Shown piece by piece: positions 49,361 through 53,644 of a DNA stretch of 53,644 nucleotides; the stretch's first letter is position 1, and each line of letters opens with the position of its first letter. Made by a program: the position numbers and the translations under genes. The notes beneath the pieces were generated by a model. It saw only the letters and a list, made by a program, of their open reading frames with translations. It ran no database searches and was not told the DNA's origin. Source of the DNA: an uncultured bacterium (lineage in GTDB: Bacteria; JAGOEH01); assembly GCA_964632485.1 (NCBI GenBank), contig CAZWDO010000024.1, positions 1 through 53,644 on the forward strand. Reading direction: 5' to 3'.

Positions 49361-49599
49361 AGAGCTATGAATTACAACAAGAGATGGAATACAACAAATT
49401 ACCTGTCGTCTAATAAAGATTTGACCAAATAATGACCAAAGCAGATGGAAACAATGGAAGAGAAAAATTCAGCCAACTCATTGAATGGAATAAAGGTATA
49501 ATACTTTAATAATTTTGGTCATTTGTTTGCTCAGTATCAAATTTATTGGTTGCGCTTTGTCACGGATTGTGTTGGCGGAGAGCAAGTTAAATACCATTA

Positions 49600-49673
49600 G
49601 CGCCTGTAGCTCATTTGGATAGAGCGTCGGACTTCGAATCCGCAGGTGGGGGGTTCGAATCCCTCCAGGCGCG
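49600..49673 (+). tRNA. tRNA-Arg (anticodon TCG); CCA not encoded
   Basis: Acceptor stem GCGCCTG/CAGGCGC, D arm GCTC-ATTTGGATA-GAGC, anticodon loop CT-TCG-AA, T loop TTCGAAT. Confidence 0.95.
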
Positions 49674-50304
49674 TTCCGGTCAGCGCTGCCATGATCAGAA
49701 TCGGCCTGAGATGGGCCTTGTCCCCAATACAATTTTCCAACTTGGCTGTTAGTAAAAAATTAAAAAATGACTTGACATTCAAAATGGAATTGTTTTTTTT
49801 TTAATAAAATCTATAGTAAGCAAAAGTAGAATGATACATTGACCATGCGATAGCATTGTATAGTAATCAACATGGATTTTCACAAACTGAAATAACCGTA
49901 ATAGCGCTTTGATTAAGTTGATTAAATCACATTGTATTGTACTGCTTCAGATGAAGATGCAAAATTCACCCGCGGCTGTTGAACTAACGTAATTTCAGCA
50001 GCGCCTCGGTAATATTTTTTCCATCGGGCGGAAATACGAAAGCATTTTTGAGTAATTATTTATTTTTTTGATTGACTTTTTATTGAGAATTACTTAACAT
50101 GCATATTGAAAAATGTGTGTCACCAATATCTATCCGGGGTGATAACAGCCGTTTGATGGGCAAATTTATAGAATTCTACCAGGAAACTCCTTTGCTTTCT
50201 TTATTAGTACACCTGATCCCGCTGATGAACTGCGGCATGTTCCCGACACTGCGCACCGTAGAACATGCCAATGAAACCAATCTTTTCGAGACGGCTCATC
50301 ATGC

Positions 50305-50580
50305 CGCCCCAAGAAATATCTTTTTGAAGGATAAGATGGAGAAAAGTATTCCCCAACAAGTGTTGTTAATATTTTGAAGAAAGCATCATTAAAAGCTGGC
50401 ATTCGTAAAATTGTTACACCCCACATGTTGCGCCATAGTTTTGCAACGCGCCTACTGGAACAAGGAACTGATTTAAGGTATATTCAAGAATTATTAGGCC
50501 ATGAAAGCTCAAAAACGACAGAGATATATACTCATGTTTCCAAAAAAGCCATCAATAAGATCAAAAATCCGATAGATTAG
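50305..50580 (+). pseudogene. 5'-truncated tyrosine recombinase with an internal nonsense codon
   Basis: [19 protein letters not shown]...[25 protein letters not shown]....[11 protein letters not shown] at 50332-50334; no recognisable N-terminal half upstream. Confidence 0.9.
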
Positions 50581-50626
50581 TTTTTTGACTAAAAGGAGTA
50601 GAAATGATAAAAGAAAAATATAAACA

Positions 50627-50691
50627 ATTATTCTTATCCCTCCAATTTGGCTGTATAAGAACAATAACTATACACAGACGTTGTGTGGCAT
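50627..50691 (+). other. attI-like primary recombination site (inferred)
   Basis: Inverted repeat ATTATTCTTAT (50627-50637) / ATAAGAACAAT (50655-50665) around CCAATTTGG, then the first core C-GTT-GTGTGG-CAT at 50679-50691 with no attC-like arm upstream. Confidence 0.55.
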
Positions 50692-50946
50692 ATAAACAAA
50701 CTACCAATGGGAAATATTTTATTAAATAGAATTAGAAAAACAAAGGAGGAATAAATATAACAAACTAAAATAAGTACGAATTTTATCTGACAATTGAGAT
50801 TTTCTTTTTTATTCTTTCAGTTATTATTTTCGTTTTTGCTGATGGATTAAAACGATGGTATAGCAAAGGTTTCTTTTTAATTATGGGAGTGAGTAGTTAT
50901 AATATGATTATCAAAAACAAAACAATACTTATTAATTGCCAACTAC

Positions 50947-51354
50947 ATGTATTTTAACATTAAAATGAAACAAGACAATATAGGAACTAAACATGATAAA
51001 TATGCCCCTTATTGGGCTGCAACACTCGTTGTACTTGTAATATTAGGATTGTCAACAATTTGGATTGACTTGGGAAATTTCTGGAAAGGCTATGTGTTAG
51101 ATATGACTGGACCAGCTTGGAATTATATTTTCTTTAGAGGTCTGAATACAGCATATTCGGACAATGCCTGGAGACGCTTTTTTACTCCAAACAGAACCTT
51201 AGCAATATTTATAACAGTATGTATTGGAATTGAAACAATGCAGTACTTTAAAATCTATAATTCGACCTTTGACTTGTGGGATTTGCTCGCTTATATCTCA
51301 ATACTTGTTCCACTATATTTAATTGATTGTGGATTGAATAAAAAGGACAAATGA
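50947..51354 (+). CDS. Cassette 1: membrane protein (DUF2809/VanZ-like)
   Basis: Hydrophobic helices and an E..QY...TFD..DLLAY motif; stop 4 nt before the inverse core. Confidence 0.7.
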   Translation: MYFNIKMKQDNIGTKHDKYAPYWAATLVVLVILGLSTIWIDLGNFWKGYVLDMTGPAWNYIFFRGLNTAYSDNAWRRFFTPNRTLAIFITVCIGIETMQYFKIYNSTFDLWDLLAYISILVPLYLIDCGLNKKDK

Positions 51355-51358
51355 ATAC

Positions 51359-51498
51359 GCCACACAACATTTTGTATAAGTAATGGCAGGTAAAGTACTA
51401 AATATCAAGTTTTGTAGCCCATTCAAACTGCGTAGCGGTTTGACAAGAAAGTACCACGCAATCTGCCACTACTCATACAATTTACCGTTCAGTGCAAT
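51359..51498 (+). repeat. attC-like site 1
   Basis: GCCACACAAC; arms TTGTATAAGTAATGGCAG (51372-51389) / CTGCCACTACTCATACAA (51463-51480); GTT at 51487. Confidence 0.85.
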
Positions 51499-51619
51499 CC
51501 GCTCCGCTTCTTGCACTGAACGCGCGGGCGGTTGGCGCGGTGCAGCCGCAAAGCGGACTGCACCGAACAAACCGGTTAACGCAATAGGGTGTAACCCGAC
51601 TGCGCCAACCGCCCGCGCG
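51488..51619 (+). mobile_element. Cassette 2: 132-bp gene-less GC-rich cassette with a perfect-stem attC-like site (51511-51630)
   Basis: GTTCAGTGCAA (51487-51497) / TTGCACTGAAC (51511-51521); perfect 20-bp inverted repeat 51519-51538 / 51602-51621. Confidence 0.75.
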
Positions 51620-51669
51620 TTGTGCCGCATGCTAAGAAAACAGAGTATCACATAAAAATAGGAGGAATA

Positions 51670-52215
51670 ATGAAAATTACATTGATTATTATAATTGCGA
51701 TTTTAGTAATATTTGCGATTGCATTTATTTACTATGGAGGGTTGATTAAAGTAAACTGTCGGATTGAGAAACAAGGAGGCGAAAAACTGGTTTATAAACA
51801 AATGACTGGTGATTATGCAAAAAGTGCAAAACTAATGGATGAGATTTACTATTCATTACTTAATAACTATGCTATTGATACCTACAAAGGGTTTGGCATT
51901 TACTATGACAACCCGAAATTAGTGGAAAAAAGCAAGTTGCGTTCAGAAATTGGTTGTATTGTCGAAGATAAGGACAGTTCCAAATTTACACAGATTGCTG
52001 AAGGGTTAAGTACAAAAACATTTCCAGAAAGGTCATATATAGTTGCCGAATTCCCAAGTAAAGGGAAATTATCCATTTTGTTTGGCATAATGAAAGTTTA
52101 TCCTGCAATTGAAAAATTTGTGGAAAATAATGGGTATAAGAATGAAGGTTCTGTAATGGAAATATACGATGTCCCAAATAAGAAAATAGTTTATAGAAAA
52201 GAAATAATTGAGTAA
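51670..52215 (+). CDS. Cassette 3 gene A: membrane-anchored GyrI-like small-molecule-binding domain protein
   Basis: N-terminal TM helix; GDY, FGIYYDNP...LRSEIGC, KVYP and MEIY; GGAGG ribosome-binding site. Confidence 0.75.
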   Translation: MKITLIIIIAILVIFAIAFIYYGGLIKVNCRIEKQGGEKLVYKQMTGDYAKSAKLMDEIYYSLLNNYAIDTYKGFGIYYDNPKLVEKSKLRSEIGCIVEDKDSSKFTQIAEGLSTKTFPERSYIVAEFPSKGKLSILFGIMKVYPAIEKFVENNGYKNEGSVMEIYDVPNKKIVYRKEIIE

Positions 52216-52220
52216 ATTGC

Positions 52221-53103
52221 ATGGATACAGTTGTTAGTGAAAATAATATAACAGAAATAATCTGCACAAGTGCACTGAATAAATTAAAGAAAAAAATTCC
52301 TTATGGTTGGGATTTGAATATATACAGGGGGTGCAGTCATAATTGCAAATATTGTTATGCGATTTATTCTCACGAATTTATAGGAGAACAAGACTTTTCT
52401 AAAGTTTTTGCCAAGACAAATGTTGCTGAACAGCTTGATAAAGAATTAAGTAATCCAAAATGGAATAGAGAAATTATTAATATTGGTGGTGTTACAGATA
52501 GTTACCAAATAGCTGAGGAGAAAATGAAAATTATGCCTCAAGTTTTGAAGGTTTTAATTAAACATAAAACACCAGCTATCATTTCAACCAAATCAGATTT
52601 AATTCTTCGAGATTTTGACTTAATTGCTGAATTGTCAAAACTTACTTATGTTAATGTTGCTTCAACAATAACGACAATGAACGAAGATGACCGTAAAAAG
52701 ATTGAGCCTTATGGTAGCCCGAGTATACAGAGGTTTAATATGTTGAAAGAGTTTAGAAAAACAAATGCCTCTGTTGGATTACATACAATGCCAATAATTC
52801 CCTGCATAACAGATAGTTATTCAAACATTGAAAGTTTATGTTCAGAAGCAAGGGCTTCAAACGTTCATTATATGCTACCTGGTACTTTGTATTTGCGAGG
52901 AGCAGGTCAAGATATTCTTTGAATTTATAAAAGACCATTATCCAGATAAGTACGAGAATATGAAAATTCTATATAAAACAGGAGGAGCAGATAAATCATA
53001 TAAAGGAAAATTGTATAACGAGATTGTTAATCCATTACGTGAGAAATACGGAATTTCAAATAGCTATATTAAACTATTGAAAGAAAAAATACATAAAGAT
53101 TGA
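52221..53103 (+). pseudogene. Cassette 3 gene B: radical SAM protein (SPL-like), frameshifted near 52900
   Basis: LNIYRGCSHNCKYCYA, GGVTDSYQ and ISTKS; coding continues in another frame (...FFEFIKDHYP...KEKIHKD) to TGA 53103, just before the inverse core. Confidence 0.8.
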
Positions 53104-53113
53104 AAAAGCACGA

Positions 53114-53251
53114 CGGCACAACATCGTATATAAAACATTTGTCAGTCAGTACGTTATCAAGCATTTCAGCCCGTATCAAAAGTAGTTGTAACTTGACAGG
53201 AAAGTGCTTCGAAATGCCAAACGTTTCATATACGTATTCGTTGTAGCTAAT
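53114..53251 (+). repeat. attC-like site 3, homologous to site 1
   Basis: CGGCACAAC; arms CGTATATAAAACATTTGTCA (53125-53144) / TGCCAAACGTTTCATATACG (53215-53234); GTT at 53240. Confidence 0.85.
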
Positions 53252-53344
53252 GCCAAGAAAAGAGTCGTGCGGAGAAAAACAATGCTATTCCCATTAAATA
53301 TGCGGATAATAATTTATATATTTACCGCAAAAAGATAAAAGTTC

Positions 53345-53569
53345 ATGGCAAAATTCATCTATGAATACGACAAATGGCCTGAATTCATGTGGGATGACAA
53401 GAAAATTATTGTGAATTTAGGTAAAGTTCGACATCTACAAGGAAAGATTTTCGGACAGATGAGCGCGCTCGGATTTTCAATAAAAGAAGAAACATTATTA
53501 TCGACTTTAACCCAACTTTTGCAAGTGGCGATTTTATTTAAATTTGTTATAACCGTATATATAATATAG
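53345..53569 (+). pseudogene. Cassette 4: N-terminal fragment of a Fic-family (DUF4172-type) protein
   Basis: IYE...WP.F.WD...L.KVR..QGK..G.M..LGF...E..L.TLT; family resemblance stops near 53513 and no Fic domain follows. Confidence 0.7.
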
Positions 53570-53644
53570 TTTTAAGACTTTTATGTCAAGAAATAGATAT
53601 ATTTTTGACCTAATTGTCAAAAATTAAGTATTTGCTATTCAATA

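Follow-up and report, generated by a model that had tools for sequence, protein, structure and literature searches.

A partly decayed, integron-like cassette array beside the remnant of a tyrosine recombinase that is not IntI

Introduction

Integrons are the closest described relatives of the DNA treated here. Their integrase, IntI, is called by a match to both of two hidden Markov model (HMM) profiles and carries an additional domain of ~35 aa near patch III (Cury 2016, PMC4889954; for the domain also Ghaly 2022). The canonical recombination site, attC, relies on three features, namely extrahelical bases, which IntI reads, a spacer left unpaired and a terminal structure that varies (Mukhortava 2019, PMC6393395), and the extra segment of IntI, the I2 helix region, contacts these bulged bases (Cury 2016, PMC4889954; Mukhortava 2019, PMC6393395). 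According to the abstract of an article in eLife 2020 (PMC7790495), this helix is held to enable single-strand recombination, and the gain of the I2 segment is regarded as the step from double- to single-strand recombination. We describe here an array of cassettes that follows the remnant of a tyrosine recombinase in an uncultured bacterium (GenBank assembly GCA_964632485.1, contig CAZWDO010000024.1). This contig, C24 in our numbering, forms the whole stretch of DNA analysed (53,644 bp, the window) and belongs to a genome of 4.45 Mb in 66 contigs that is 98% complete. Other contigs of this genome are named likewise (C6, C34 and so on), and coordinates without a contig name are those of the window.

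Several variants of the classical arrangement have been documented. An inverted integron-integrase group was described (Cury 2016, PMC4889954), and Ghaly 2022, where the IntI domain is the defining character of IntI in an account of archaeal integrons, mentions Spirochaetota IntI in 'reverse orientation'. In inverted-integrase integrons (e.g. of Treponema), the integrase is co-directional with the cassettes and attI lies downstream of its gene, as in the arrays reported here, but those integrases are defined by the IntI-specific domain, which the recombinase family here does not have. Clusters of attC sites lacking integron-integrases (CALINs), with no intI nearby, are common, and only 50 tyrosine recombinases without the insert were counted near attC in complete genomes and judged 'are not IntI' (Cury 2016, PMC4889954). 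The 'Integron-like' simple tyrosine recombinases of Smyshlyaev 2021 (PMC8138268) include insert-less members, for which the sections on this subgroup report no cassette arrays; the array-linked family described below may belong to it. Full-text literature searches, which did not extend to subscription journals, turned up no account of insert-less recombinases followed by cassette arrays. Table S1 of IntegronFinder 2.0 lists 0 complete integrons, CALINs or In0 for Candidatus Cloacimonas acidaminovorans, which has no bearing either way.

The array in the window resembles classical integrons in many respects. An attI-like site lies next to the recombinase, the cassettes are co-oriented and mostly contain a single open reading frame (ORF), and the site comes right after the stop codon. 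The sites are arrayed imperfect palindromes with R''/R' and L''/L' pairing, AAC...GTT R boxes, a cassette-specific R'', a bottom-strand G·T by the R box, an unpaired spacer and a long variable loop, and cassette 3 carries a Cass2-like protein. Unlike in classical integrons, the recombinase is without the ~41-aa IntI segment and falls outside the IntI clade, while the sites are of near-constant length (133-138 nt) and combine an uninterrupted 15-bp stem and an invariant internal G·T with the absence of extrahelical bases (20 seed sites), whereas 10 canonical sites gave a bulge. Neither the C that precedes GTT nor the A that follows AAC is a novel feature, since 9/10 canonical class 1 attC sites that we extracted share them.

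The cassette array of the window is genuine, although in part decayed. The recombinase next to it falls into a clade outside IntI with a specific association to arrays of this kind, and this pairing recurs in many uncultivated bacteria. We estimate at roughly 70% the probability that the window holds the decayed end of an integron-like cassette platform whose recombinase is not IntI.

The cassette array

A first-pass annotation, made from the letters of the window, had listed four cores with C before GTT and three complementary words, and all of them were confirmed by direct reading. The cores are C-GTT-GTGTGG-CAT at 50679-50691 (GTT at 50680), C-GTT-CAGTGC-AAT at 51486-51498 (GTT at 51487), C-GTT-GTGCCG-CAT at 51618-51630 (GTT at 51619) and C-GTT-GTAGCT-AAT at 53239-53251 (GTT at 53240). 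In 3/3 complete cassettes of the window, a 6-mer plus AAC (CCACAC-AAC at 51360-51368, GCACTG-AAC at 51513-51521 and CGGCAC-AAC at 53114-53122) is the exact reverse complement of the GTT plus 6-mer that opens its own unit, and in none of the three does it complement the core at the right of its own hairpin. The annotation had drawn precisely this distinction, and it had also stated that no core fits GTTRRRY; 0/4 window cores do, and across the family loci the fit is 4/39 R' cores, counted by eye.

To what extent chance could produce such an arrangement was assessed with 2000 composition-preserving shuffles of 50581-53644, a chain being at least two GTT+6/6+AAC pairs head to tail (40-200 nt). 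Chained pairs arose in 1/2000 shuffles, at a mean of 0.67 GTT+6/6+AAC pairs per shuffle, and natural 3-kb tiles from the rest of the window were without a chained pair in 16 cases out of 17, the remaining tile having one. Three more pairs in 50581-53644, which are not chained, are AT-rich chance matches. The features are collected in Table 1, where R1 is a covariance model of the attC-like sites.

Table 1. Features of the array and of its surroundings in the window
Feature	Position	Strand	Description
tRNA-Arg(TCG)	49600..49673	+	ARAGORN; Rfam tRNA 66.1 bits
Recombinase C-terminal remnant	50301..50580	+	Xer/XerA-like tyrosine recombinase; in-frame TAA 50332-50334
attI-like site	50581..50682	+	50607-50682 repeated at 93-94% on C48 and C34
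Cassette 1	50680..51486	+	core GTTGTGTGG; one ORF 50947-51354, 135 aa, hydrophobic stretches by inspection
attC-like site 1	51360..51495	+	136 nt; R'' CCACACAAC, 15-bp L stem, R' GTTCAGTGC; R1 106 bits
Cassette 2	51487..51618	+	no ORF; 65% GC
Cassette 3	51619..53239	+	GyrI-like/Cass2-like ORF 51670-52215; frameshifted radical SAM gene 52221-53103
attC-like site 3	53114..53248	+	135 nt; R'' CGGCACAAC, R' GTTGTAGCT; R1 87 bits
Cassette 4, partial	53240..53506	+	N-terminus of DUF4172 (Fic-family N-terminal) ORF from 53345
138-bp repeat	53507..53644		77% identity copies at C6:48015 and C16:83958

For the 135-aa ORF of cassette 1, no protein family was matched. The ORFs of cassette 3 matched PF06445 (47.5 bits), PF14526, the Cass2 family (26.5 bits, cut-off 27), and NF038135 (173.7 bits). 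The radical SAM gene of the window is a frameshifted pseudogene because metagenome copies carry extra letters near 52904: two (AC) after 52904 in 3/4 copies, and single-letter insertions at 52905 and 52908 in the fourth. In cassette 4, the ORF matched PF13776 over residues 4-57 (50.2 bits), and family homology ends at ~53507, where the 138-bp repeat interrupts the cassette and coincides with the end of the contig.

The site of cassette 2 (51513-51627) is a perfect 20-bp palindrome, GC-rich and of another type than sites 1 and 3, with z-scores of -6.7 and -7.4. This second site type, which has no internal loop, was also seen at C6:245160-245290. On both C24 and C6 it bounds an ORF-less unit that stands second in the array, and the two share the stem GGCGG(G)TTGGCG. 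A GC content far above that of the host suggests a foreign origin of these units.

Five arrays or array starts with the same end complementarity were found in the genome, on C24, C6, C34 (two) and C48. On C6, an intact recombinase of 280 aa is followed by ...TATACAAAC|GTTGTGTGC, an ORF of 328 aa, GCACACAAC, the hairpin and GTTGTCCAA; the array then continues with the GC-rich ORF-less unit up to the end of the contig. On C34, an internally deleted recombinase gene precedes two cassettes that obey the 6-mer rule. The 76 bp ahead of window core 1 have the copies on C48 and C34 noted in Table 1, homology stops at GTT, and the three attI-like copies lead into three different first cassettes.

Two of these copies, C48:1440-1600 (L106) and C34:22240-22400 (L105), are orphans without a recombinase gene. 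Upstream of each lies a perfect TTGACA-17-TATAAT promoter with a conserved leader of ~150 nt, which may serve as a cassette promoter or encode an RNA; the conserved stretch of ~230 bp ahead of the orphan copies on C48 and C34, which comprises promoter and leader, matched no Rfam family. Near-identical solo copies of the site were also noticed at C30:8586-8716 and C43:301-431. Their R boxes are degenerate (..GATAAAG, ..CGTATAGC) and there is no cassette complementarity, so that they look like decayed relics within a repeat.

Structure and detection of the sites

The structure was derived from 20 sites of 133-138 nt, taken from this genome and seven other loci. RNAalifold analysis of the bottom strand gave the R box (AAC/GTT), an adjacent G·T, an asymmetric internal loop of ~8/5 nt and the uninterrupted 15-bp stem with no bulged bases, 20 pairs in all, of which 14 show compensatory changes. 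In an alignment of 28 model hits, 95.2% of cells pair, as opposed to 67.8% in shuffles (0/500 as high). No Rfam family matches the attC-like sites, and reading of the window sequence revealed no -10-like hexamer at sigma-70 spacing from the conserved loop motif (TTGACAGGAAAGT..). A simple hairpin scanner, whose hits with scores under ~19 included many false positives, was used only jointly with the 6-mer rule. A longer site family (~185-195 nt) with the same end rules and five cassettes was found at L044:6678-9980. R1 misses these sites. With this longer form at one of its loci, the recombinase clade would serve several site families.

As a proxy for a canonical attC model, we used R2, made from 10 natural attC sites of five class 1 integrons on plasmids, the consensus of which has a bulge. 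Next to a true Cloacimonadota IntI, R2 recognised a canonical site (35.4 bits, E 1.7e-6); a further one scored weakly (13.9 bits). The sites of the window and of ten array loci all went undetected by R2, also with filters off; conversely, R1 found none of 12 canonical attC sites at E<=1. As far as a proxy of ten sites can stand for them, this is suggestive that canonical attC models miss the sites. The first-pass annotation had proposed that standard models may miss the locus. For the recombinase this is supported by the TIGR02249 scores, which lie below the cut-off (see below), and for attC it holds with respect to the proxy R2.

Cassettes in metagenomes

Contigs from four metagenome runs of four studies (sediment, stromatolite, wastewater, landfill) were mapped to 50100-53644. 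Cassette 3 was present in 4/4 runs, most aligned pieces having 95-99% identity, and in all four its homology begins at 51618, the C before GTT. Its left flank, shown for three of the runs, is a different one every time. To the right, homology extends into site 3 or slightly past it before other cassettes follow, one of which starts ...CAACC GTTAGCCGT. In run X2, the attI-like segment 50609-50676 precedes another cassette start. By this comparison, with a constant left boundary and changing neighbours, cassette 3 is shared between communities and the cassettes appear to be independently mobile. Because summed depths reach hundreds to thousands for sites 1 and 3 in X4 and X7 and hundreds for site 3 in X3, the site family is highly repeated in these three runs. 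A joint of 51639 to 53103 in a contig of X7 has only 21 letters on its short side, below the reliability threshold, and was not used.

Taken together, the end complementarity in other arrays and organisms, the covarying hairpin and the differing contexts of cassette 3 bear out the cassette interpretation that the annotation had put forward.

The recombinase family

The annotation had also taken 50305-50580 for a recombinase of non-IntI type. A non-IntI tyrosine recombinase it is, though not a gene: what is left at 50301-50580 is a C-terminal remnant with a TAA in frame. These last ~80 codons keep HxLRH, LLGH and the catalytic Y, the first ~190 codons are gone, and the intact paralogue on C6 corresponds to the remnant over its residues 191-270, at 66% identity. 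It matched PF00589 and scored 93.5 bits with TIGR02249, 90.1 with XerD and 88.0 with XerA, all far below the cut-offs. Judged by its sequence, the window copy is a dead, inactive fragment.

Further copies or pseudogenes make up a set on C6, C24, C34 and C9. The one at C9:143831-144094 (L008) is the 3' part of a recombinase gene with 91% DNA identity to the window copy, the homology starting at 50301; an element that carries two transposase ORFs, IS3-like by reading of these ORFs, interrupts it behind '...IQELL'. In the window, the cut point of the gene is marked by an 80-bp segment (50221-50300) that directly abuts the truncated recombinase. This segment recurs twice on C2 at 82-84% (339458, 343326), and its minus strand encodes the start of a short conserved peptide (MSRxExIGxIGMF.GAQ).

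Full-length members were represented by the C6 protein and by P0001 (374 aa), a full-length relative of the C34 pseudogene. With TIGR02249, the curated IntI model of NCBI (cut-off 265 bits), they scored 231.3 and 230.1 bits, respectively, in two stretches skipping profile positions 180-240. Their scores with the XerA model NF040815 (229.7 and 231.5 bits) lie above its cut-off of 220, and those with the XerC/XerD models (194-203 bits) below the cut-offs of 330-335. Where 4 true IntI have the segment specific to them, an alignment shows a gap of 41 columns in the C6 protein and in the remnants of the window and of C9. The motifs GKGxKxR and HxLRH lie 62-75 aa apart (mostly 65-66) in the family loci where this is measurable, against 105-107 aa in those of the 12 true-IntI loci (10 loci) that showed both motifs. 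The catalytic positions are all invariant among 14 aligned family members. The nearest solved chains are XerA 4a8e (151.6 bits, one stretch) and IntI4 2a3v (142.9 bits, two stretches).

The family shares with XerA, XerC and XerD a simple two-domain architecture and an equal spacing of the catalytic motifs, passes the XerA model and has an XerA as its best solved match. It differs from them in having several copies and pseudogenes per genome, in being fixed beside arrays and in remaining below the XerC/XerD cut-offs. A housekeeping Xer role at a single dif site does not agree with the several copies, the presence in 20/151 Cloacimonadota genomes and the link to arrays; no search for dif was made.

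In a tree of 94 rows, the 9 true IntI all cluster in a single clade (support 100), and 7/8 array-linked recombinases fall into one clade of 24 rows (support 98). Together with the absent 41-residue segment, the short motif spacing and the low TIGR02249 scores, this separation from IntI upholds the non-IntI assignment. A third clade of 37 rows includes members (L037, L045, L055) that are followed not by cassettes but by a gene with a CxxC...HCPKCQ zinc motif, which we take to be an IS91-type transposase. The family as a whole is very large, with at least 8000 matches. The best 120 of these have at least 59% identity; they are named XerD, site-specific integrase or 'tyrosine recombinase/integron integrase' in their sources and come from metagenome-assembled genomes of Delongbacteria, Marinimicrobia, Spirochaetota, Syntrophales and Clostridiales.

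Association of the recombinase clade with arrays

R1 was searched in 88 sources and gave 26 hits at E<=6.5e-4. All of them are downstream of the recombinase gene and on the strand opposite to it, and the arrays are therefore co-oriented with the recombinase. Where at least 1200 bp of downstream sequence was available, 10/13 clade loci were array-positive by R1 or by an exact 9-mer complement. An unbiased 9-mer test was positive at 8/23 clade loci against 0.73 hits expected, and at 6/57 other loci against 1.5 expected. Cassette-specific end complementarity was also observed in L022, L029, L030, L032, L036, L038, L044, L046, L049 and L051, and the array core lies 0 to ~240 bp after the recombinase stop codon in 17 loci. 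For instance, on a contig of 1.56 Mb in genome G078, a recombinase of 356 aa is followed by four sites.

The search with a new covariance model near intact homologues, proposed in the first-pass annotation, returned arrays downstream of and co-oriented with recombinases, and the rule of end complementarity holds in more than 15 loci. The annotation had listed the downstream, co-oriented position of the cassettes as unusual. The orientation is real, as the 10/13 clade loci show, but it is not new, since inverted integrons are known (Cury 2016, PMC4889954).

Evidence against the reading and alternative explanations

A sample of 151 Cloacimonadota genomes, in which the recombinase was called at E<=1e-85, contained 40 genomes with sites, 20 with the recombinase and 10 with a true IntI. 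Sites were found in 17/20 recombinase-positive and 23/131 recombinase-negative genomes (Fisher p = 4.9e-9), which speaks for the association, related genomes being non-independent, so that Fisher values are overstated. This overstatement is one of several points that weigh against a cassette platform with a non-IntI recombinase. The 23 genomes without a detected recombinase carry sites nonetheless; sites also occur in 7/10 IntI-positive genomes as compared with 33/141 IntI-negative ones, and in 4/6 IntI-positive genomes that lack the recombinase. The recombinase that adjoins the window array is itself a dead remnant, and L024, L034 and L061 are array-negative among the 13 clade loci with sufficient flank. 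In the 94-row tree, the array-linked clade, Xer and IntI form a polytomy. The metagenome data are assembled contigs, which show context and not circles, and no recombination product was seen. Lastly, the alignment of 28 model hits was fitted to the model and is biased towards structure.

The alternative that survives best regards the arrays as ordinary, CALIN-like integron clusters served in trans by a canonical IntI, the Xer-like neighbour being incidental or having another role. We consider it unlikely. The higher frequency of sites in IntI-positive Cloacimonadota speaks for it, as do the likeness of canonical attC, which likewise has AAC...GTT, a G·T by the R box and AAC-A/C-GTT, and the abundance of CALINs far from any intI (PMC4889954). 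The rules of IntegronFinder would make the window locus at most a CALIN, there being no IntI, and arrays of this kind may already be counted as CALINs in surveys based on that program. However, these arrays are headed, unlike CALINs, by a non-IntI recombinase clade and an attI-like site, and at the 17 loci they begin directly past the recombinase stop. A TIGR02249 scan of the 98%-complete genome, with its five arrays or array starts, found no IntI above the curated cut-off. In Cloacimonadota, R1 gave 0 site hits in the 77 kb that surround the 10 true IntI genes. One true IntI examined there is accompanied by a divergent array of the classical kind, whose core is GTTAGAC and whose site measures 65 nt, so that both systems coexist in this phylum. 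The sites furthermore lack the bulged bases that IntI reads, as described for canonical attC by Mukhortava 2019 (PMC6393395). In the IntI-only genomes the site arrays are at contig ends, and one such genome, G140, has a family remnant of 66 aa, internally deleted, 2 kb upstream. The true IntI loci of Cloacimonadota include L109 (G102:C70) and L116 (G091:C75).

Slightly less probable still is an exchange of double-stranded modules of the Xer type, comparable to pdif, in which the conserved arms flanked by AAC/GTT would act as plain binding sites in duplex DNA, without any hairpin. It would suit a recombinase that passes the XerA model and is without the helix held to enable single-strand recombination (PMC7790495). 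The folded site of a cassette platform predicts a cassette-specific R'' complement, as was observed. The modules of pdif are bounded by double-stranded XerC/D sites of ~28 bp, unlike the boundaries here, which are covarying hairpins of ~134 nt with strand-specific G·T pairs. Across the 28 model hits, both sides change at 13/15 stem pairs although the arms are ~100 nt apart, and pairing falls to 36-58% when partners are slid. Among pairs other than Watson-Crick, only bottom-strand G·T is tolerated, and at fixed places: adjoining the R box in 27/28 sites and within the stem in 26/26, for which a double-stranded site offers no reason. If the top strand folded, these pairs would become A·C mismatches. 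The predicted stability favours the bottom strand in 20/26 sites, by a mean of 2.1 kcal/mol.

That there is no mobile system at all, only intergenic terminators or repetitive extragenic palindromic (REP)-like repeats with a coincidental 6-mer match, is very improbable: the sites do stand directly after stop codons and a terminator-like minus-strand match (53128-53109) overlaps the left end of site 3, but chained pairs were nearly absent from the shuffles, the 6-mer rule holds in the more than 15 loci, and cassette 3 has identical boundaries in differing contexts of four metagenomes.

Proposed mechanism and significance

For a cassette platform with a recombinase other than IntI, the anatomy of the loci suggests how it would work, with the recombinase clade as the probable catalyst of the exchange and a bottom strand that has folded as its substrate; of the inferences drawn, this has the best support. 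In the intact form, known from C6 and homologous loci, an Xer/XerA-like recombinase with a core of 280 aa, extended in some members by ~100 aa at the N-terminus, is read towards an attI-like site 0 to ~240 bp past its stop codon, which ends in ...TATAC-N3-7-(A/C)C|GTT. The co-oriented cassettes, carrying one, two or no ORFs, open at GTT plus the 6-mer and end in an imperfect palindrome of ~134 nt, composed of the 6-mer complement plus AAC, the G·T wobble, the asymmetric internal loop, the 15-bp stem with its invariant G·T, a loop of ~75 nt and C-GTT. The bottom strand would fold, so that the substrate is presumably single-stranded, and the recombinase would exchange strands at the AAC/GTT core, the presumed place of cleavage. 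Two folded sites would thereby release a cassette as a circle, and a folded site with attI would capture one. Such a mechanism, which is that of integrons, would explain why the left 6-mer of each cassette pairs with the R'' of its own site. Since the window recombinase is a dead fragment, activity on the window array would have to come in trans, e.g. from the C6 paralogue.

Although the clade has no IntI segment and its sites have no bulges, all remaining hallmarks of cassette capture are found. We see even odds for a wider proposal, namely that a large insert-less Xer-like clade runs its own single-strand hairpin cassette capture, as an independent invention or as a surviving stage before IntI, that this system is widespread among Cloacimonadota and further lineages, most of them uncultivated, with cassettes exchanged across environments, and that it is largely invisible to IntI-based surveys. 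If the recombinase is the catalyst, the origin of integrons could be tested with a natural insert-less form. Anaerobic digesters, sediments and wastewater would then hold larger pools of cassettes than IntI-based counts indicate, and structure-specific recombination would offer a second system for use as a tool, one of simpler structure.

Genomic setting

The GC content of the array region is ~30%, as compared with 43.8% genome-wide, and the low-GC island begins right after tRNA-Arg. A 61-aa ORF on the minus strand (49597-49782) overlaps the 3' end of the tRNA gene and contains '...AALTGTRLEG...', and 49669-49744 is similar, at 80-84%, to stretches inside tyrosine recombinase genes of C41, C11, C17 and C28. 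This ORF looks like the remnant of a tRNA-targeting integrase, and the array would therefore sit in an integration hotspot.

In 50300-53644, a promoter scan gave 12 promoter-like sites where 15.6 were expected from shuffles, and a terminator scan gave 4 terminator-like sites where 1.7 were expected, which is at or near shuffle level. On C6, the region after the copy of the 138-bp repeat has only short overlapping ORFs and is possibly a locus for rRNA or another RNA.

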